A DNA stretch of 64,000 bases from Candidatus Bathyarchaeota archaeon (GTDB lineage Archaea; Thermoproteota; Bathyarchaeia; Bathyarchaeales; Bathycorpusculaceae), in contig OY970176.1 in the NCBI GenBank assembly GCA_963707955.1, positions 800,001 through 864,000 on the forward strand. The letters run 5' to 3'. The notes under the pieces are model-generated. The model ran no database searches, was not told the DNA's origin, and saw only the letters and a list, made by a program, of their open reading frames with translations. How positions within the stretch are numbered: the stretch's first letter is position 1; the number at the start of each line of letters is the position of its first letter. Both the position numbers and the translations under genes were made by a program. Positions 46,853 to 63,163 of this stretch are shown here, piece by piece.

Positions 46853-47171
46853 GGGCTGGCGAGTTGGTGTGTGGCTTTCGAGCCTCGACGTGAGAGGCTT
46901 GAGGAAACTCCGCCCACAAGTAGAGTTGCAGCGTCCGCAAGGGCGCAAGGTGAGAACCTTGGCTCCAGAGCAGAAACGAAACGTCCGCTCAGCAGGTGAC
47001 GGTGATGCATGCTAAGTTGTTGAGGATGCTGAGTGCGAAGCGATGAAACGGCTGTCCTGCATGTGGAAAGGGCAAGCAGACGCTGATGAAGAGTCTACCG
47101 GAAGCGCGGGTAGCCCGATTAGCCGAATGCCACAAAGAACAAAAGGCGGGTTACGACCAACACACCAGCCC
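46853..47171 (+). ncRNA. rnpB: RNase P RNA
   Basis: Conserved regions GAGGAAACTCC, GCAGAAAC, TGAAACGG, GGGCAAG, ACAAAAGGCGGGTTAC; P1 helix GGGCTGG/CCAGCCC; followed by T-tract. Confidence 0.93.
47147..47170 (+). repeat. att site 1 (3' end of rnpB)
   Basis: CGGGTTACGACCAACACACCAGCC, repeated at 53247 and 62470. Confidence 0.92.
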
Positions 47172-47224
47172 TTTTTTCCCGAATACCACAAAAAAATCCA
47201 AAGATTCAGAACGTCTTAATCCAA

Positions 47225-48073
47225 ATGCTAAAAGACAACAAGAGCGACTACACAATTAACTTCACAAGAAAAGCCCTAACATTCCTAAGCCAGCACACAA
47301 ACCTAGCAGAACCAGAGGCAGTAAAGCTGTTCATAGCAACGCACAAAGCCTCCGACGGATACAAACGGAACCTCTGCATAGCTTACAACAAGTACTGCAA
47401 GTTCTACAACATCAATTGGAATATGCCCAAGTACCGAGAAGAAGCTAAGAACATCGCCCTACCCACCAAAGAAAAAATACAAATGCTCATCGCAAGCGCA
47501 GGCAGACTTCTCTCAATGAAACTACAGCTGAGCATGGAAACAGGACTCAGGCCCGTAGAAATTGCAAGACTCAAAGTCAAAGACATAGACCTAGAACACA
47601 GAACTGCAAATCCGATAACAGCCAAGAGAGGCAACCCAAGAACCGTACCAATGTCACAGGGCTTAACACTGAAAATCCAAGAATACATAACAGCGAAGAA
47701 CCTTACACCATCCGACTTATTGTTCAAAGGACAAGACTCGGACCACTACGGCAAACACTACCGCATAATGCGGAACGAATTAGCTGAAAAACTCAAGGAC
47801 CCATCAATCCGAACAATACGACTATACGACCTCAGACACTACTTCTGCACAAAGAAACTAAACGACATCGGAAACCCCTACACTGTAATGGTTCTAATGG
47901 GACACACAAAACTAACAACGACCCAACGATACATGCACCTACTCAACTTCAACGACGACGAATGGACATGCACAGGAGCAACGACAGCCAAAGAAGCAAC
48001 CAAACTCATAGAAAACGGATTCCAATACGTAACAACAATCGAAGGAATACAACTATTCAAAAAACGAAAATAA
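47225..48073 (+). CDS. Tyrosine integrase (C-terminal part; frame open back through the att)
   Basis: TGLRPVE, AKRG, YDLRH, MGH, TTQRY catalytic motifs. Confidence 0.93.
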   Translation: MLKDNKSDYTINFTRKALTFLSQHTNLAEPEAVKLFIATHKASDGYKRNLCIAYNKYCKFYNINWNMPKYREEAKNIALPTKEKIQMLIASAGRLLSMKLQLSMETGLRPVEIARLKVKDIDLEHRTANPITAKRGNPRTVPMSQGLTLKIQEYITAKNLTPSDLLFKGQDSDHYGKHYRIMRNELAEKLKDPSIRTIRLYDLRHYFCTKKLNDIGNPYTVMVLMGHTKLTTTQRYMHLLNFNDDEWTCTGATTAKEATKLIENGFQYVTTIEGIQLFKKRK

Positions 48074-48429: not shown

Positions 48430-48533
48430 TTTTCGTTAGCTCTGACGAATAGAAATAGCTATGAAATTAGGACTTAATAAACCAGCGATGCCCATGTCCT
48501 TTAACTAACAGTATCCCGAAAACAAAAACATAT

Positions 48534-48581
48534 TGGCTCGTGAGCCTTTCGGCTCACTCGCACGTTCCAGACGATACGCCA
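48534..48581. repeat. 48-bp hairpin repeat, copy 1
   Basis: TGGCTCGTGAGCCTTTCGGCTCACTCGCACGTTCCAGACGATACGCCA. Confidence 0.9.
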
Positions 48582-50329: not shown

Positions 50330-51521
50330 CTAATCAGTCTTAACCCCTCCACTCTTGTCAACATAATTGGGCTTACCTAACTGGTCAAATTCAGGCTCAA
50401 GCCAAGCAGGTCTATAACCAATCATCCCAGTATCCTTAACATTATAATGCGTACCAATCTGAAACACACTTTCCATATCTTCATCACAGATAGCGCAGAT
50501 TAGCGAGTTCGCCAAAATATGAAACTACAGAAGCATGCTTTAGGCCGACCTGAACCAAGCAGTGATGAAGTTCGTACCACAGCGTCCCGTAAATGGACTC
50601 TCTCTTGTCCTTCACACTAACCAGAATCTTGTCAATTTCATAATTTCGCATTTCCCGACCACGAAAACCAGAACATGCCAAGCAATCCTCCTTACTATGA
50701 AAATCGCATAAACGGCACATGTCGTAACCGTTTTTGACATAAGAAACCGTATGAAAATGCGGGCTATACTCTTGACGAGTGTGCGACTCATTCACACGCC
50801 ACCCATGCGGAATAATCACGCCTCCAACAACCCCCCTAATAGCCAGCGCATCCAAAGCCATAGCCTTCAGCTTCGGAATAGGAATGTTGAAACAATTCGG
50901 CAAAAAGGAAACGATAGTATGTTCGGGACAAAACAGGCCATGCTTCTCAGCAGTCTTGATCCGAGCCTCAATAGAACGTGCCGCACGACACGCAAAACCA
51001 TTCAAACAACACTTCGGGCATAACGGACTATGACACCACCAATGCTTGTGCCTAATCAAAATCTTGTCAGTAGCATCCTCACCACGAAACATCTTACCCT
51101 TATGCCCTTCCACATTTTTGCAAGCCGAATACCCATGATGAGAAGCACAAAAATTAGGATTAGTAACAGCACCAAAAGTGGCAGGCACATAAGCAGGAAA
51201 AGGCGCATGCTCATAAGGCAAATAATGATGCGGATTATCCCCCAACCGACGATTTATCCGTAATCGATTCTCTAAAAAACGAGCTGCACGCGACCTCTCT
51301 GCATCAGTAACCTTAACCTTAGACCCAGAAGGTAAGTCATTCTCAACAGCCTTCCAATGTTCCGCCTCTTCAGCGACCTTGTAATTATTGAATCGCAAAT
51401 ATTCAGGACAGTTGAAGCATCTCATCATAATACTAAACAATACAAATTTGCGGTGAGGGCATGGAACACTATCCCAAAAACCACAAAAGAAAGGACGACC
51501 CCGTGTAGTCACATTATCCAT
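50330..51521 (-). CDS. HUH-superfamily rolling-circle Rep-like protein, probably frameshifted near 50500
   Basis: C..P.CP.C Zn motif, HTIVS (motif I-like), GGVIIPH, SPHFH (HUH), Y-ELHH (motif III-like); CAIC-containing tail in ORF 50330..50515. Confidence 0.7.
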
Positions 51522-52448: not shown

Positions 52449-52661
52449 CTAAGAGTCTTGACCTCGAAGATAATTCCTTCCAAAATAGAACCCAGCAAGA
52501 CTGATGACTAGAAAGAAAATCCCAAGTAACAGAACATATTTGCCTTGATCCGCAAAATCAGATTCCCGCATGGTCATCATGCCCCATCCCAAGAGAACTG
52601 AACCAAAACCTGCAACAAGCAGGCCCAACAGTATCAGCTTTATCAAAGTGCCACCTATCAC
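52449..52661 (-). CDS. Small membrane protein
   Basis: Two TM segments; GGGAGG SD upstream. Confidence 0.6.
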   Translation of the reverse strand: MIGGTLIKLILLGLLVAGFGSVLLGWGMMTMRESDFADQGKYVLLLGIFFLVISLAGFYFGRNYLRGQDS

Positions 52662-52790
52662 TGTGCTGTCCTCCCAACCTGTTCGGTCTTCCCCTCAATC
52701 CATACTTACACCAATCAAGAAGAACATCAGAGGTTGAATTTTAGACTTTCGTCTCAACAAGCGCGTGCCGAAAAAACCAGTCCGCTCATG

Positions 52791-52926
52791 TCCTCGGAGA
52801 CATAAGCCTTCCCCTCATTTGAAAAAGAGGAAAAGTTAGAAGGCATCTCATACGGAAGCCAATCTTAAAACTATGCATGAGCTTCCTATTAGCATCTTGT
52901 TGTGAAGGCATATTGTCTCCTCGTCC
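52791..52926. repeat. Conserved 136-nt structured non-coding element, copy A
   Basis: 5 differences from the copy at 62123-62258; terminal inverted repeat GGAGACATAAGCCTTC/GAAGGCATATTGTCTCC. Confidence 0.85.
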
Positions 52927-53072
52927 CCAAACGACGAAAAGATGAAGGTTCATGAAATAGAAATCGGAGATGCGGAAATGAAAACCCTTAAACGAACCCA
53001 AGAAGAAATTCGATACGCCCAATTATGGGCAGAAATAGAGGTCCCAAAAAGTCTAAAAGGAGTAGAAGGCCA

Positions 53073-53270
53073 ATGAGCAAAGAAAGTCAGAACCCAAGCC
53101 AGCCGCCAGCCAGCGAGCGAGTAAGCCAGCAGGCCAGTCAGCCTCATGCCATAGCCCTCAACGGTGAAAAACAAAGCCCGAATCAACCAGTAAACAATAA
53201 ACAAACACAAAAAACAGAAGATAAAGAAAATTATAATGGATTAGGACGGGTTACGACCAACACGCCAGCC
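53073..53270 (+). other. Integrase N-terminal segment (intN) reading into att 2
   Basis: MSKESQNPSQ...GLGRVTTNTPA reads the att in the same frame that leads into the integrase at 47225. Confidence 0.65.
53247..53270 (+). repeat. att site 2
   Basis: CGGGTTACGACCAACACGCCAGCC. Confidence 0.92.
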
Positions 53271-53338
53271 CTTTACACCTGTACACCGCCCTTTTGCAGA
53301 AATCGACATCAAAACGCGGTTCTGAGAGGTGAAGACTG

Positions 53339-54286
53339 ATGACGTACAGAAACACCTCAATCAGACCCGTAATAACACCAACCACACTCGAAAAACAATT
53401 AATCCCTAACAATACATCAATCCTGAACGTACTAATTCAAATGAAAAACGACAACAAGAGCGACTACACAATAAACTTCACCAGAAAAGCACTGAACCTC
53501 CTGGCAAAACATACGAGCCTCGCGGAACCTGAAGCAGTGAAGCACTTCATAGCACAACACCGAGTGTCAGACGGATACAAAAGAAACCTCTGCATAGCTT
53601 ACAACAAATACTGCAAATACTACAAAATAGAATGGCAAATGCCACAGTATCTCGAAGAAGCCAAGAATATCAAACTACCAACAAGAGAAAAACTACTCAT
53701 GTTAGTAGCCAAAACCAAAGTCCCATTGTCAATCAAACTGAGGCTGAGTATGGAAACAGGATTACGGCCCGTCGAACTATGCAGACTAAGAGTTAACGAC
53801 TTGGATTTAGACCACAGAACAGTCAACCCAACAACCGCCAAGAAAGGTAATCCGAGAACACTGCCAATTTCGCAATCACTCACAGAATCATTAATTGAAT
53901 GGATAGGCAAGAAACGACTAAAACCAACCGACAAAATATTCAAAGGAAAAGCCGACGATTACGGCAAACACTATCGAATCATGCGAAACAAACTTGCAGA
54001 AGACATTAAAGACCCATCAATACGCATGATCAGGCTATACGACTTCAGACACTATTTTTGCACCAAGAAACTAAACGACATCGGAAATCCTTACACTGTA
54101 ATGGTCTTGATGGGACACAAAAAACTTGAAACCACGCAAAGATACATGCCCCTACTGAATCTAAACGACGATGAATGGACATGCACAGGAGCAACAACTG
54201 CGCAAGAAGCTATGAAACTAATAGAAGCAGGCTATCAATATGTCACAACAATCGAAGGAATACAGCTGTTCAAAAGAAGAAAATAG
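53339..54286 (+). CDS. Tyrosine integrase (paralog of 47225..48073)
   Basis: TGLRPVE, AKKG, YDFRH, MGH, TTQRY; GAGGTGA SD. Confidence 0.93.
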   Translation: MTYRNTSIRPVITPTTLEKQLIPNNTSILNVLIQMKNDNKSDYTINFTRKALNLLAKHTSLAEPEAVKHFIAQHRVSDGYKRNLCIAYNKYCKYYKIEWQMPQYLEEAKNIKLPTREKLLMLVAKTKVPLSIKLRLSMETGLRPVELCRLRVNDLDLDHRTVNPTTAKKGNPRTLPISQSLTESLIEWIGKKRLKPTDKIFKGKADDYGKHYRIMRNKLAEDIKDPSIRMIRLYDFRHYFCTKKLNDIGNPYTVMVLMGHKKLETTQRYMPLLNLNDDEWTCTGATTAQEAMKLIEAGYQYVTTIEGIQLFKRRK

Positions 54287-54699: not shown

Positions 54700-54808
54700 T
54701 TTGATACACTCAGATAATCTGCTCCGTTCTTTTGGAAATATAAGCCTTTGCAGAGTGACCACAATGCAAACATCAAAAACCTCTCTTTTATTCAAGCAAA
54801 ATTCGTCT

Positions 54809-54856
54809 TGGCTCGTGAGCCTTTCGGCTCACTCGCACGTTCCAGACGATTCGCCA
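54809..54856. repeat. 48-bp hairpin repeat, copy 2
   Basis: One substitution relative to copy 1. Confidence 0.9.
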
Positions 54857-57330: not shown

Positions 57331-57408
57331 TATGCTCAGTGCGCGCGCGCTCAAAAAACCGACACAGATCGCTCGATAAAACTCTAGCTCCACACACTGA
57401 AACTACTG

Positions 57409-57912
57409 TCAGATTATCTCTTTTGCCATGGTTATTCGTTCTGGTTTGTATCCAGTTCTGCTGTAAAGCTTTATTGCAGAGTCATTTGTCGCTGATACCG
57501 AAAGAGCAATTCTGGAATGCCCCTTCCTTCTACAATAATCTTCCGCCTTTTCCAAAAGCAACTTCCCGATTCCCTTGCCTCTGAATTCCTCTTCAACAAA
57601 AATGTCATAAATATAACCGAAGGTCAGCTTAGTAATCTGGCCTCTGATTTGTCCAACGATCAAGTGTCCAACGTACTTATGATGTTCATCCTCTGCGACA
57701 AAGACCTCGGTATTTTCTTCCTTCAAGATATTCTCATAATCTTCAATCACATTCATGTTCCATTTCTCTCTATCGAGAAGCTTTTTCTGCGTTTCAGGGA
57801 TGTATTCCCACGAGTTTTCAACAAACATTTTCTTCACTAAGGATATGTCAGTTGCTTTTGCTTTCCTTAATTGAATGTTCATCAACATCATCCTTTTCGC
57901 GCCAGATGTCAA
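57409..57912 (-). CDS. GNAT acetyltransferase (copy 1)
   Basis: FRGKGIGK.LL, N.SAIKLY..GY; near-identical to 59940..60431. Confidence 0.9.
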   Translation of the reverse strand: MTSGAKRMMLMNIQLRKAKATDISLVKKMFVENSWEYIPETQKKLLDREKWNMNVIEDYENILKEENTEVFVAEDEHHKYVGHLIVGQIRGQITKLTFGYIYDIFVEEEFRGKGIGKLLLEKAEDYCRRKGHSRIALSVSATNDSAIKLYSRTGYKPERITMAKEII

Positions 57913-57953: not shown

Positions 57954-58043
57954 GACAGCGAAAGAAGCAACCAAACTTGTAGAAGCAGGATTCCAACACG
58001 TCACAACAATCGAAGGAATACAACTATTCAAAAACGCAAGTAA
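57954..58043 (+). pseudogene. Integrase 3' fragment
   Basis: TAKEATKLVEAGFQHVTTIEGIQLFK matches the C-terminal tail of both integrases. Confidence 0.85.
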
Positions 58044-58596: not shown

Positions 58597-58644
58597 TAGC
58601 TCGTGAGCCTTCCGGCTCACTCGAACGTTCCAGACGATACGCCA
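58597..58644. repeat. 48-bp hairpin repeat, copy 4
   Basis: Loop TTCC instead of TTTC; stem intact. Confidence 0.88.
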
Positions 58645-59752: not shown

Positions 59753-59835
59753 ACAGCTCGCTTTTTGGAGTGTTTAAAGCTTATGTTCTAGCGGGCGCAA
59801 ATAACGACAATCCTTTTTTCCCACAAAAACCATCT

Positions 59836-59880
59836 TGGCTCGTGAGCCTTTCGGCTCACTCGCACGTTCCAGACGATACG
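59836..59880. repeat. 48-bp hairpin repeat, copy 5
   Basis: Identical to copy 1 over 45 nt. Confidence 0.9.
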
Positions 59881-59939
59881 TTCAAAGAACCGACACAGAT
59901 CGCTCGATAAAACTCTAGCTCCACACACTGAAACTACTG

Positions 59940-60431
59940 TCAGATTATCTCTTTTGCCATGGTTATTCGTTCTGGTTTGTATCCAGTTCTGCTGTAAAGC
60001 TTTATTGCGGAGTCATTTGTCGCTGATACCGAAAGAGCAATTCTGGAATGCCCCTTCCTTCTACAATAATCTTCCGCCTTTTCCAAAAGCAACTTTCCGA
60101 CTCCCTTGCCTCTGAATTCCTCTTCAACAAATATATCGAAAACATAACCGAAGTTCAGCCCAGTAATCTGGCCTCTGGTTTGTCCAACGATCAAGTGTCC
60201 AACATACTTATGGTGTTCATCCTCTGCGATAAAGACCTCACTATTTTCTTCCTTCAAGATATTCTCATAATCCTCAATCACATGCATATTCCATTTCTCT
60301 CTATCGAGAAGCTTCTTCTGCGTTTCAGGGATATATTCCCACCCTGTTTCAACAGCCATTTTCTTCACTAATGGCATGTCAGTTGCTTTTGCTTTCCTTA
60401 AGTGAATGTTCATCATCATCATCATCATCAC
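59940..60431 (-). CDS. GNAT acetyltransferase (copy 2)
   Basis: Duplicate of 57409..57912; begins GTG(ATG)6. Confidence 0.9.
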   Translation of the reverse strand: MMMMMMMNIHLRKAKATDMPLVKKMAVETGWEYIPETQKKLLDREKWNMHVIEDYENILKEENSEVFIAEDEHHKYVGHLIVGQTRGQITGLNFGYVFDIFVEEEFRGKGVGKLLLEKAEDYCRRKGHSRIALSVSATNDSAIKLYSRTGYKPERITMAKEII

Positions 60432-60548: not shown

Positions 60549-60591
60549 AACAACAATCGAAGGAATACAACTATTCAGAAAACGCAAATAG
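60549..60591 (+). pseudogene. Integrase 3' fragment
   Basis: TTIEGIQLFRKRK-stop followed by the same CCCC-TTTT terminator-like tract seen after the intact integrases. Confidence 0.8.
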
Positions 60592-60645
60592 CCACAACCC
60601 CCATTTTTTTATTTCGAAATAGAAGGAAAGAAACTGCCTGAGAAA

Positions 60646-62019: not shown

Positions 62020-62122
62020 ATCCCTTCACTACCAAGGTGCTATTCTTGTTGCCTGATTACTTAAAACAGTGCCGAAAAAGAGTGGCTACATCAATCAGCC
62101 AAGATAGAGTCAGGCGCTCCTC

Positions 62123-62258
62123 TCCTCGGAGACATAAGCCTTCCCCTCATTTGAAAAAGAGGAAAAGTTAGAAAGCATCTCATACGGAAGCCAATCTTAA
62201 AACTATGCGGAAGCTTCCTATTAGCATCTTGTTATGAAGGCATATTGTCTCCTCGTCC
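62123..62258. repeat. Conserved 136-nt structured non-coding element, copy B
   Basis: Near-identical to 52791-52926 and likewise upstream of an att. Confidence 0.85.
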
Positions 62259-62469
62259 ACAAAAACGACGGAATCATGAAGGTCAATGAAAGAATATCGG
62301 AGATATGAAGATGAGAACCCTTAAAAGAACCCCAGAAAAAATAGGAGACGGGAAGCTAGGGCAGAAATCGAGCTCCCAAAATTTTTAGGAGACGAAAAAT
62401 GATGAGCCAAGAAAAGACGGAACCACAAACACAGAAGACAACAATTTCAAAGATTACTAAGGCTATAGA

Positions 62470-62493
62470 CGGGTTACGACCAACACGCCAGCC
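62470..62493 (+). repeat. att site 3
   Basis: CGGGTTACGACCAACACGCCAGCC. Confidence 0.92.
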
Positions 62494-62589
62494 TTTTCTC
62501 AGAACCCGCCTCCTGATATCAACACACAGAACGGAAAACTCATAGAATACATGCTATATCTACAAAGAGCAGGATTCAGCGAAGCTTAG
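62470..62589 (+). pseudogene. Probable truncated start of a third integrase
   Basis: The att frame reads RVTTNTPAFSQNPPPDINTQNGKLIEYMLYLQRAGFSEA-stop, resembling an integrase N-terminal helix. Confidence 0.5.
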
Positions 62590-62596
62590 AGTCAGA

Positions 62597-63163
62597 TTGA
62601 TGAGTATTGAAGGCCACTGTTCAGACAGATATTTCAATCAGATATTTGGTTTAATTCCTGAATTGATTAGACCTGAGTACAGGAAGACTTTCAAGGCTTA
62701 TGATGGAATAAACAATGTTTTCAATTTGGCTTATGAAATGCTGTCATGGAAAGTGCATCATGCGTTGATAAAGGCTAAGCTTGAACCGTATCTGGGTTTT
62801 CTGCACAGTATGGCAGAAGGAAAACCGAGTTTAATCTGCGATTTTCAAGAACTGTATCGCTATCTTATGGATGATTTCGTTATTCAGTACTGTCGGAGAC
62901 TTCAGAAGAAAGATTTCATAATGAAGTATGAGGATTTTTCAACGAACCGAAAGGGAAAGAGAGAATACCTCAACGATTCTCTAACACACAGTCTGATTAG
63001 AAGTTTGAACGAATACTTCCAGAGCAAAGTTGAGATTCCACGAATTAGAATGGGAAAGGAACAGGAAATTGAGACGTTAATCAATGAAGAGACTCTACTA
63101 TTTGCAATGTACTTGAGGAATGAGAAACAGACATGGATTCCCAGAATTGCAAATCTAAACTAA
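62597..63163 (+). pseudogene. cas1: Cas1 catalytic domain, N-terminally truncated (solo, no CRISPR array in window)
   Basis: MSIEG...YF, D..N..FNLAY, LEPYLGFLH, SLICDFQELYR retain the E/H/D-E catalytic pattern; in-frame stop at 62543 upstream. Confidence 0.85.

Follow-up and report, generated by a model that had tools for sequence, protein, structure and literature searches.

Two mobile elements, A and B, stand in tandem in the 3′ end of the RNase P RNA gene of a Candidatus Bathyarchaeota archaeon, within a contig stretch of 64,000 nucleotides that was analysed as a whole (the window), and a copy of the same non-coding module lies near the right end of each (Table 1). The repeat search of the window returned the pair as family D6 (52783-52931 versus 62115-62263, 149 nt, 95% identity), and a search of the source genome (2,346,764 bases) found exactly two copies, with E values of 3.7e-73 and 2.5e-62. 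The preliminary description had counted five differences between 52791-52926 and 62123-62258, all of them outside three helices. Both points were reproduced: 131 of the 136 bases agree, and the differences, at 52842, 52877, 52878, 52879 and 52902, avoid the closing helix, the P2 hairpin and the P3 stem (52854-52859/52881-52886). The flanks had also been described as strongly divergent, which holds for the left side only, where the 150 nt upstream are 48% alike, the chance level for a global alignment; on the right, identity over the 150 nt downstream is still 70%, a moderate divergence, and the two integrase genes that follow are 75% alike.

Table 1. Coordinates of the module and its neighbouring features in the window
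Feature	Position	Strand	Remarks
Module copy 1, 135 nt, TCCTCG frame to CTCGTC	52791..52925	+	CM R1, 152 bits; near the right end of element A
Module copy 2, 135 nt, 130/135 identical to copy 1	62123..62257	+	CM R1, 154 bits; near the right end of element B
5′ arm of the closing inverted repeat, GGAGACATAAGCCTTC	52796..52811	+	BRE/TATA-like when read on the − strand, pointing left; PWM 7.4
3′ arm of the closing inverted repeat, GAAGGCATATTGTCTCC	52904..52920	+	BRE/TATA-like, pointing right; PWM -1.1
Small palindrome/hairpin P2, CCTC..GAGG plus TT/AA	52813..52830	+	6 pairs, 98.7% of cells paired
Palindrome/hairpin P3, GGAAGC / GCTTCC, 21-nt loop	52854..52886	+	81.9% paired; double changes in 3/6 pairs
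Short inverted repeat TCGTC-N7-GACGA, then RTGAA (ATG 52942)	52921..52944	+	predicted rightward start region; small ORF 52942-53076
Short reading frame across att ('intN')	53025..53339	+	integrase 53339-54286 of element B directly after
att repeat, copy of the RNase P RNA 3′ end, A/B junction	53227..53274	+	family D9; others 47127-47174, 62450-62497
Candidate HUH rolling-circle Rep of element A	50484..51521	−	broken near the C-terminus; rest in another frame, 50330-50515

As had been proposed, the module is found upstream of each right-hand att, with D9 lying 322 and 213 nt after the two copies. The suggested tie to the integrase was borne out in the relatives described below, where every copy with a readable context stood just upstream of an N-terminal frame leading into att or the integrase (26/26 contexts listed), at 123-322 nt from the att core where a core was recognisable. 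The next long gene after the module was an integrase in 4 of the 9 cases checked and otherwise a host gene, namely pyruvate:ferredoxin oxidoreductase beta (twice), a class-I W/Y tRNA synthetase, Ftr, an AsnC-type regulator or a HAD hydrolase. The integrases matched PF00589 only. The cargo proteins, including one of 443 aa, had no Pfam, PHROG or PDB sequence match, and the atlas gave unnamed clusters only.

A protein-coding module was considered and rejected, as the only ORF across it (52786-53022, − strand, 78 aa) is missing from copy 2 and the family lengths differ by non-multiples of three. Contigs from X1-X4 span the module region. One X3 contig joined 48532 to 54808 across repeats of D4, a second conserved hairpin element, with 6275 letters skipped and 43 shared, and one X4 contig joined 48026 to 57998. 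Two further X4 joints fell within the module (52810 to 52905, and a backward one from 62146 to 52905 with 36 intervening letters); they proved to be short-form relatives of another organism instead of rearrangements.

Conservation and symmetry of the module

We collected at least 41 distinct relatives of 74-174 nt, and all those collected fall in one family of Bathyarchaeia. They share an almost invariant frame, which consists of a pair of inverted arms, each about 17 nt long, together with a conserved bulged T (52913 in the 3′ arm of copy 1) and an A.A mismatch (A at 52910), and enclose a variable interior that sets the arms 30-130 nt apart; in the short forms of 74-96 nt, P2 and P3 are entirely missing. 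TCCTCG marks the left edge and recurs as a direct repeat just inside the right end, where it overlaps the 3′ arm. On the left the module ends abruptly, and the DNA outside is unrelated from copy to copy, as expected at the edge of a functional module. Some copies have GCGCGC junction scars touching their 5′ end, with no conserved upstream region there. Loop sequences are highly conserved among close relatives.

In a pattern scan of the genome collections, 116 stretches matched, most of them by chance in bacteria, and 23 carried both arms; all 15 of the both-arm stretches with titles were Bathyarchaeia or Bathyarchaeota MAGs. The metagenome scan gave at least 15 stretches with both arms among the 120 matches listed, the remainder matching by chance, and none of the 4 stretches found in IMG/VR had both arms. 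The module had no match in annotated phage and plasmid collections. Our literature search on the RNase P RNA as an integration site of archaeal integrases found no papers, the listed titles and abstracts on Bathyarchaeota integrases named no such elements, and none of the passages found in PMC10848311 deals with the module, which is previously undescribed.

When seven copies from six genomes were compared, identity within the module exceeded that of both flanks in 21/21 pairs, which argues for purifying selection. Gene conversion within a genome, raised beforehand as a possible source of the similarity, does not explain the conservation, because the module outscores both flanks in every cross-genome pair.

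All three inverted repeats that had been drawn as helices are kept by compensatory changes. In the 41 copies, the closing helix comprises 605 Watson-Crick, 0 wobble and 10 mismatched cells out of 615, and 6 of the 10 mismatches are C.A cells, equivalent to G.U on the − strand. Double changes occur in four of its pairs and include the single-step variant GAAGACA/TGTCTTC, and the bulged T and the purine-purine mismatch are each kept in 41/41 copies. At one P2 pair, 6 of 26 sequences show a U-A/C-G exchange, and P3 occurs in four different complementary stem versions with a loop of 21 nt, or of 32 nt with a small extra hairpin (lengths counted by eye). The RNAalifold consensus of 12 relatives contains 25 pairs, with compensatory changes in 7. 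Over the helices of the three inverted repeats, covariation was 0.160 compared with 0.070 in column shuffles (0/500) and at most 0.066 in slid controls, and 51 cells were doubly changed compared with 18.0 in shuffles (0/500), in a test on related sequences from which the tested structure had itself been derived. Further pair types were not enriched (15 versus 15.7 in shuffles, reached in 389/500), and wobble pairs were almost absent. Such covariation is also compatible with a DNA hairpin or with symmetric sites for a protein. A fourth helix, P4, was left out of the model, being just 71% paired and dependent on register.

Compared with shuffles as a single sequence, the whole module gave z scores of -2.72 on the + strand and -2.51 on the − strand, while the interior alone was no stabler than shuffles (mean z -0.70 and -0.75); the reverse complement gave the more stable fold in most copies. 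A closing helix with no wobble pairs, together with an interior no stabler than shuffles, points to a symmetry of the DNA type. The fold drawn in the preliminary description corresponds to the RNAalifold consensus; a non-coding RNA with a multi-way junction is not supported.

Promoter likeness of the arms

We trained a promoter matrix on the regions upstream of 26 tRNA genes, the 5S rRNA and the RNase P RNA of the host, which gave the consensus CCGAAAaTCTTAAAT. Scores of at least 9 clustered 20-60 nt before ORF starts (97+80 versus 41+24 in the opposite orientation), so that the matrix works as a predictor of promoters in general, and the genome background had its 99.9th percentile at 6.9 and its 99.99th at 10.3. 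Each arm bears a resemblance to this BRE/TATA consensus of the host, and both are directed outward. Read on the − strand, the 5′ arm scored at least 7 in 37/40 copies and at least 9 in 26/40, with a median of 9.7; the 3′ arm, read on the + strand, scored at least 5 in 21/40 and at least 7 in 8/40, with a median of 5.2, and reached only -1.1 and 0.5 in copies 1 and 2 of the window. The motif of the right arm ends 10 nt before the module does, and a conserved RTGAA follows 13-18 nt beyond the module end, so that 23-28 nt separate the two; in the window, the ATG at 52942 comes 27 nt after the motif. An archaeal transcription start is expected about 23-27 nt after the TATA box. A TCGT..ACGA repeat was seen at this position in 28/39 contexts, with stem lengths modestly above shuffles, and TCGTC..GACGA stems of five or more pairs in 16/39 contexts compared with 24% in shuffles; this downstream hairpin may be plain sequence conservation.

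A promoter at a CTTAAAA box with repeated operator or arm sites had been offered before as one explanation of the element. The box lies in the P3 loop (52856-52870, PWM 9.9) and is the best rightward box in the module copies of the window, but it is unconserved, since relatives 96% identical have TTGCAA or TTACAA instead. The proposal survives best with the arms themselves as outward BRE/TATA-like boxes.

We tentatively favour the reading that the module is a DNA-level promoter/operator cassette of the integration module, which we regard as possible and somewhat short of an even chance. The cassette would be a double-stranded DNA control region at the left edge of a conserved integration module, whose order in the circular form would be module, short leader or small ORF, N-terminal frame with attP, and integrase. 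The arms would be inverted copies of a promoter core that fire outward: the right arm would drive the transcript of the integrase unit, starting about 23-28 nt on, at the conserved RTGAA, perhaps assisted in the source window by the P3-loop box, and the left arm would drive transcription toward the cargo genes. After integration, transcription from the right-arm promoter would cross attR and enter the host gene that has had its 5′ end displaced by the element; such a gene has lost its own upstream region and depends on the right end of the element for a promoter. The small palindromes and, between the TATA box and the start, the near-invariant TGTCTCC and TCGTC..GACGA could serve as operators for an element-encoded or host regulator.

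The position of the module, its conservation, the symmetry kept by double changes, the promoter likeness and the spacing are what this cassette reading builds on, and the arm scores against the host matrix together with the RTGAA spacing count in its favour. From them we infer a start by RNA polymerase and the binding of a regulator; the symmetry of the arms would then reflect shared recognition by a protein or concerted evolution of the arms. Several observations count against the cassette. The right arm is poor in both window copies, and the P3-loop box is unconserved. A promoter needs neither complementary arms nor a bulge, yet both are conserved, and the P3 stem versions and loop hairpin resemble base pairing more than an operator. 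Of the two arms, the left one has the better scores but faces away from the integrase, and in the 8 of 22 loci where the upstream neighbour is co-directional, that gene would be read antisense; moreover, the leftward gene of element A has a stronger promoter of its own (52752-52738, score 12.8).

Alternative readings

The preliminary idea of a single-stranded DNA origin keeps some probability because a candidate HUH rolling-circle Rep stands next to 11 of the 25 assessable copies, 0.7-2.3 kb upstream and always on the opposite strand. According to this reading, which we consider doubtful, the module acts as folded single-stranded DNA when these elements, or those of them that bear a Rep, replicate by rolling circle, where the stem would rebuild a duplex BRE/TATA and host machinery would prime the complementary strand or an early transcript. 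The explicit version of it, an archaeal single-stranded promoter/origin at which TBP/TFB and RNA polymerase prime the complementary strand or express the first genes from the paired arms, we hold to be unlikely; we know of no precedent for archaeal complementary-strand priming by RNA polymerase. The closing stem, strong and conserved, does consist of two promoter-like arms, and their complementarity, Watson-Crick throughout, with the invariant bulge and mismatch, suits a DNA hairpin recognised by a protein. Once folded, the + strand would rebuild the better left promoter, presumably with the single-stranded left flank as template, and the left arm is conserved irrespective of the orientation of the neighbouring gene. 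D4 and the module keep one relative order and orientation, and the orientation of the module to the Rep candidate is also constant. The Rep candidate has an invariant H-x-H and Tyr, and replication-nickase domains make up all nine of its best fold matches, although these are weak (Z 3.7-4.5, all below 5). Foldseek returned nothing at an E value of 0.001 or better, no Pfam family was assigned, and no match was obtained against PDB sequences with the protein alone or as a profile. The reading is further weakened by the 14 of 25 assessable copies that have no Rep nearby, and by a 97% complete genome (G009) with four full module copies that keep their helices and zero Rep matches. In element A the Rep candidate is broken, and the interior of the module contributes no stability to a fold. 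At the second Rep locus of the source genome no module was seen by eye upstream of the integrase-like gene.

The integrase-associated non-coding RNA of the preliminary description was not supported. Rfam 15 at gathering scores yielded only the RNase P RNA and the 5S rRNA in the window, and for 52650-53100 at E values up to 10 only chance-level hits, rdlD (17.4 bits, cut-off 50) and suhB (13.2 bits, cut-off 41). A host-type + strand promoter ending 15-35 nt ahead of the module was found in 4/41 copies, and a − strand promoter to its right that could give a whole-module transcript in 0/40; by eye, no T run was seen in the flanks after the module on the + strand. The few whole-module promoters and the absence of a visible T run count for the promoter cassette over a dedicated transcript. 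We regard it as unlikely that the module is a structured RNA, be it a 5′ leader of the integrase transcript acting in cis or a small RNA with a three-helix junction. A structured RNA would account for compensatory changes in all three helices above column shuffles and slid controls, for the hairpin insertions taken up by the P3 loop, for the C.A mismatches, which together with the stabler reverse complement would suit the − strand, and for the loop conservation between close relatives. It fits poorly with the lack of + strand wobble pairs in the closing helix, with pair types not above shuffles, with an interior no stabler than shuffles, with scars at the 5′ end of some copies, and with short forms that lack both inner hairpins. 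Taken together, the module is most likely not a dedicated or free-standing transcript but a DNA-level control region with promoter-like arms.

It is very unlikely that the module serves site-specific recombination as an accessory site, at which the arms would be bound by a non-catalytic part of the integrase, or by a directionality or architectural factor, in the manner of lambda-type arm sites. The module does travel strictly with the integrase module and not with cargo, within a few hundred nucleotides of a recognisable att core; its arms are invariant across elements with integrases of different target use, which would suit arm-type sites bound by a conserved domain, and its conservation exceeds what a promoter needs. 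The distance to the att core is variable, however, only two sites are present, in inverted order and with a variable spacer, and no arm-binding domain was identified in the integrases; the promoter likeness and the interior palindromes would be left unexplained.

A relic of a miniature inverted-repeat element (MITE), or a neutral palindrome kept symmetric by template switching or gene conversion and with no present function, is highly improbable: it would agree with the terminal inverted repeats, the small size, the variable interior, the TCCTCG that recurs directly inside the right end, and the Watson-Crick-only 'compensation' that arm-to-arm conversion would yield, but the module is not dispersed, its two genomic copies occupying the same place in their elements and its relatives sharing that context, its flanking direct repeat does not vary between copies and reaches into the stem, the bulge and the mismatch would be lost under conversion, and identity stands above both flanks in all cross-genome pairs. 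Flanking direct repeats were also considered as target duplications and rejected (mean 7.7 versus 7.1 in shuffles; 10 or more in 6/40).

Significance and comparison with known systems

Bathyarchaeia are abundant, uncultured sediment archaea, a lineage for which we know of no genetic tools, and to our knowledge almost nothing is known about the control of their mobile elements. The module is a sharply bounded, strongly selected non-coding part common to a family of small integrative elements, whose insertion targets are the gene for the RNase P RNA and the 5′ ends of genes of core metabolism. Should it be a promoter cassette, it would explain how such elements insert in host operons without silencing the downstream gene, and would provide a portable, host-matched promoter for Bathyarchaeia. 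If it is a single-stranded DNA hairpin, single-strand promoters and origins would extend to the archaeal transcription machinery, and Archaea would gain in the module their first device of the Frpo or sso type, one that uses an archaeal (eukaryote-like) promoter architecture. The module and the promoter matrix give testable predictions of start sites, and the module can serve as a metagenome marker for such elements.

Among known systems, MITEs share with the module terminal inverted repeats, a small size and a variable middle. Their hallmark is many dispersed copies with differing target-site duplications; the module differs in being undispersed, in a single context and without variable target duplications. 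The attC sites of integrons, which are recognised as folded single strands, are likewise imperfect inverted repeats that have conserved unpaired bases and a variable-length centre and are associated with a tyrosine recombinase. The module differs from them in that it occurs once per element, upstream of the integrase and not at cassette ends in arrays, that its arms lack the usual attC core consensus, and that the recombining site is a separate repeat, D9.

The single-strand origins of rolling-circle plasmids (sso/ssi) resemble the module in being non-coding, orientation-fixed, imperfectly palindromic, about 75-175 nt long and conserved above their surroundings, on elements that often carry an HUH Rep candidate. 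The motifs known for ssoA are RSB and CS-6. The module differs from these origins in that it is also found where Rep is absent, in elements and in one whole genome, and heads an integrase gene. An sso is a lagging-strand start used by host enzymes and not by Rep, according to PMC5714925. For the Frpo of conjugative plasmids, PMC11541004 describes a fold that mimics duplex promoter DNA. The module is like the Frpo/ssi promoters in that its stem would rebuild a duplex promoter, with BRE/TATA in place of -35/-10, and in that its imperfections fall within the promoter core; it differs in its archaeal host, in the lack of sequence similarity, and in that no conjugation genes were seen among the ORFs scanned.

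The last comparison is with the divergent control regions of temperate archaeal elements, in which back-to-back BRE/TATA promoters are combined with operators. The module differs from these in that its cores are complementary through double changes and hold a conserved bulge and mismatch, and in that its right arm is weak in many members and its left arm often faces a co-directional gene. It resembles them in the match of its arms to the promoter consensus and in the spacing to the predicted start, in lying between the integrase unit and the cargo, and in having palindromes beside and downstream of its TATA-like cores.

Tandem elements in the RNase P RNA gene and their terminal modules

The window carries two tandem mobile elements, A and B, both integrated into the archaeal RNase P RNA gene at its 3′ end, with the last bases of that gene repeated at the junctions. 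A literature search found no published report of this gene as an archaeal integration target. As the preliminary description had it, a conserved non-coding module lies upstream of each right-hand att: at its right end each element has the module, then a short leader, then a short frame running across the right att. From this arrangement, the circular form would run from the module through the leader or small ORF and the N-terminal frame with attP to the integrase. The region's two integrase genes are 75% alike. Element B is mosaic, containing a duplicated pair of GNAT acetyltransferase genes (95% alike) as well as two integrase 3′-end remnants, which suggests that several older insertions decayed in place within it. 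The 188-aa Cas1 fragment matches the C-terminal part of PF01867 only and begins about 100 nt past the last att copy.

Features of the region (window coordinates)
Feature	Position	Strand	Basis
RNase P RNA gene	46859-47165		Rfam, 187 bits
att repeats (D9), copying the last bases of the RNase P RNA gene	47127-47174, 53227-53274, 62450-62497		repeat search
Element A	about 47.15-53.25 kb		bounded by att repeats
Element B	about 53.25-62.47 kb		bounded by att repeats
Tyrosine recombinase genes, directly after the left att of A and B	47225-48073, 53339-54286		PF00589
Module copies 1 and 2	52791-52925, 62123-62257		
Repeat pair containing the module	52783-52931, 62115-62263		repeat search
Small ORF after module copy 1	52942-53076		
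Rep candidate ORF, 345 aa	50484-51521, remainder 50330-50515	-	conserved residues, weak fold matches
D4 (second conserved non-coding element), about 45 nt	48533-48578, 54784-54853, 58599-58641, 59811-59880		repeat search
GNAT acetyltransferase genes	57348-57647, 59879-60178		
Integrase 3′-end remnants	57954-58034, 60550-60615		
Cas1 fragment	62597-63163		PF01867

The two module copies, contained in a 149-nt repeat of 95% identity, are the only ones in the 2.35-Mb source genome. Their near identity was borne out: 131 of 136 bases agree, and the five differences (52842, 52877-52879 and 52902) all fall outside the three helices drawn earlier. The strong flank divergence described for them holds on the left, where the two copies have unrelated flanks (48% on global alignment), but the right flanks are 70% alike over 150 nt; thus, the core is better conserved than its surroundings, with strong divergence on one side only. 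Moreover, module identity exceeded that of the 150-nt flank on either side in all 21 pairs among seven copies from six genomes; in one such pair (G001 and G004), identity was 97.0% in the module, 74.4% downstream and 49.1% upstream. Conversion between the tandem elements within a genome, raised earlier as a rival source of the conservation, therefore does not explain it.

The module is followed by a small ORF of about 32-44 aa (motif KTLKRTQEE..AQLWAEIE), seen in four copies, including loci L003, L004 and L007, and frameshifted in copy 2 from 62277 onward. In other subfamilies the small ORF is a different one (..IIALDHIGTYRTPRG..). These products are possibly small regulators.

A near-invariant frame around a variable interior

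BLAST, an exact-pattern genome scan, a metagenome scan and a covariance-model search together gave 41 distinct full copies of 74-174 nt, a small sample of related members. BLAST of relatives placed the module in 7 of 61 genomes, the source genome included, and the covariance model in 10 of 151 genomes (6 of 70 genera) of the host's family. The pattern scan of the genome collection matched 116 stretches, 23 with both arms, and all 15 of these with a taxon given are Bathyarchaeia or Bathyarchaeota MAGs; the metagenome scan added at least 15 two-arm stretches (15 of 120 among the matches listed). The module was absent from IMG/VR and from annotated phage and plasmid collections, and no Rfam family matched it.

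The 5′ side reads TCCTCG and then the 5′ arm, most commonly GGAGACATAAGCCTTT; the 3′ side is the 3′ arm AAAGGCATATTGTCTCC followed by TCGTC. Long forms (135-174 nt) carry two small hairpin-like palindromes, P2 and P3, and short forms (74-96 nt) have different interiors. Some truncated copies end after 35-70 nt at a GCGCGC motif. GCGCGC(G) runs form the breakpoints of truncated copies L010, L011 and L005, and abut the left edge of the module in several loci (upstream flanks of L004, L083, L157, L185 and L250; also L188 and L249).

Counted at fixed offsets from both ends in all 41 copies, without alignment fitting, the closing helix formed by the arms comprises 605 Watson-Crick cells, no wobble and 10 mismatches, six of them C.A. 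A bulged T is kept in 41/41 copies, as is one mismatch, A.A in 39 of them and G.G in the other two. The 11 arm haplotypes include GAAGGCA/TGCCTTC, the one-step GAAGACA/TGTCTTC, and GCA/TGC replacing GCC/GGC. The P3 stem occurs as GGAAGC/GCTTCC, GCAAGC/GCTTGC, GCCAGC/GCTGGC and CCATGC/GCATGG, and is broken in one subfamily (GCTCGC on both sides). RNAalifold on 12 long copies recovered the three helices proposed earlier, with 25 pairs, seven of them showing compensatory changes. In a larger set, covariation was above the shuffles in score but not in further pair types, and these figures overstate the support because the sequences are related and the structure was taken from them. Slid controls scored at most 0.066.

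Covariation in 26 long copies, with the structure hand-written from those sequences and 500 shuffles
Measure	Observed	Shuffled	Reached in
Standard-pair cells	91.4%	86.2 +/- 0.5%	0/500
Cells changed on both sides	51	18.0 +/- 3.1	0/500
Covariation score	0.160	0.070 +/- 0.007	0/500
Pairs with double change	9	6.5 +/- 1.2	20/500
Further pair types	15	15.7	389/500

Promoter likeness and gene context

A promoter matrix was built from the upstream regions of 28 stable-RNA genes of the source genome (26 tRNA, 5S rRNA and RNase P RNA); its consensus is CCGAAAaTCTTAAAT, also given as CCGAAAnnCTTAAAT (BRE plus TATA). Genome-wide, hits of at least 9 lying 20-60 nt before ORF starts numbered 97 and 80 in two bins in gene orientation, and 41 and 24 in the opposite one. 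This pile-up makes the matrix usable as a promoter predictor, and suggests that many leaders of this Bathyarchaeon are short or absent. Against a genome distribution with its 99.9th percentile at 6.9 and its 99.99th at 10.3, the 5′ arm on the - strand (GnGAAAGGCTTATGT) scored at least 7 in 37/40 copies and at least 9 in 26/40 (median 9.7). The 3′ arm on the + strand (nAGAAAGGCATATTG) had a median of 5.2 and reached 7 in 8/40 copies, scoring only -1.1 and 0.5 in the window. Both promoter-like arms point outward. The CTTAAAA sequence, suggested earlier as a promoter box, is indeed the best rightward hit in the window (9.9, in the P3 loop), but is not conserved in relatives. Between the end of the right-arm motif and the module end lie 10 nt, and a conserved RTGAA follows 13-18 nt past that end, so that 23-28 nt separate it from the TATA-like core; in the window, this core is 27 nt from the ATG at 52942.

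Beyond the module and the short frame lies either an integrase, in tandem arrays or as a single intact 348-aa gene (L103), or the 5′ end of a host gene. The host genes encode pyruvate:ferredoxin oxidoreductase beta (two different elements), a class-I W/Y tRNA synthetase, Ftr, an AsnC-type regulator and a HAD hydrolase. In these 5′-end insertions (L012, L013/L286, L073, L018, L017 and L016), the short element-encoded frame overlaps the host start. In L286 the element sits between the oxidoreductase alpha and beta genes (beta confirmed by Pfam, alpha read from the ORF sequence). In at least one case, genes belonging to the same operon are separated by the insertion. If the element carried a promoter at its right end, the host gene beyond it would stay expressed. 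Of 22 loci, 13 have a divergent upstream neighbour, 8 a co-directional one and 1 none.

The single most likely reading, to which we give somewhat less than an even chance, is a promoter/operator cassette; it is favoured by where the module lies, by its likeness to a promoter, by the spacing, and by the need for a promoter at the right end. Three features are left unexplained by it: the arms stay complementary around an unchanging bulge and mismatch, P3 varies through compensating transversions, and the better-scoring arm points in the direction opposite to the integrase, even where it meets a co-directional gene.

Single-stranded DNA, RNA and other readings

These three features would be explained if the module acted as a hairpin on single-stranded DNA, its stem rebuilding a BRE/TATA duplex in the manner of an sso (PMC5714925) or Frpo (PMC11541004). 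A possible source of single strands is the 345-aa ORF, a candidate HUH rolling-circle initiator in which H255, H257 (H-x-H), Y316 and several cysteines are invariant and two cysteine clusters occur. In a wide structural search with its predicted structure (mean pLDDT 84.5), the best nine matches were all replication-initiator or nickase domains, at Z 3.7-4.5: RepB of pMV158 (two entries), Vientovirus Rep (two), SIRV1 ORF119 (a Rep), MVM NS1, AAV5 Rep, nanovirus Rep and bocavirus NS1. A Foldseek search returned no match at E 0.001 or better. The ORF has at least 428 relatives at that same E-value limit (P0002-P0154 among them), matched by no Pfam model; they are a candidate new family of rolling-circle initiators in archaeal integrative elements. 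In the window this ORF is frameshifted, and broken near the C-terminus. Among 28 full module copies located in genomes, 25 had enough flank to judge, and in 11 of these the Rep candidate lies 0.7-2.3 kb upstream, on the opposite strand every time. However, genome G009 has four module copies and no Rep; such Rep-less copies, the weak Rep assignment and a single-strand form of the element that was not observed leave the hairpin reading rather unlikely, at about half the weight of the cassette.

D4, with a 7-bp stem (GTGAGCC/GGCTCAC), also occurs in five other genomes (G004, G009, G027, G101 and G150), in Rep-bearing and Rep-less elements alike. It lies about 450-500 nt past each integrase gene or remnant, in the same orientation as the module, and one X3 contig links 48532 to 54808 exactly across two D4 copies. 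D4 may be the site nicked by Rep or a double-strand origin, or it may form the integrase unit's 3′ end.

A structured RNA is a little less probable still. Without the arms, the interior showed no added stability over dinucleotide shuffles (mean z -0.70 for the + strand and -0.75 for the - strand; 6/41 copies had a + strand value below -2), so the whole-module z of -2.7 comes from the arms, which counts against the compact multi-way junction proposed earlier. The matrix scan found a promoter positioned for a whole-module transcript in 4/41 copies on the + strand and 0/40 on the - strand. Taken together, the rarity of such promoters, the wobble-free closing helix and an interior both unstable and replaceable fit a DNA-level element better than an RNA. 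A recombination accessory site is improbable, and a functionless relic more so.

Literature and database searches found no earlier description of the module. We regard it as a new, lineage-restricted variant of a kind already known from mobile elements, namely a control region or an origin-like palindrome.
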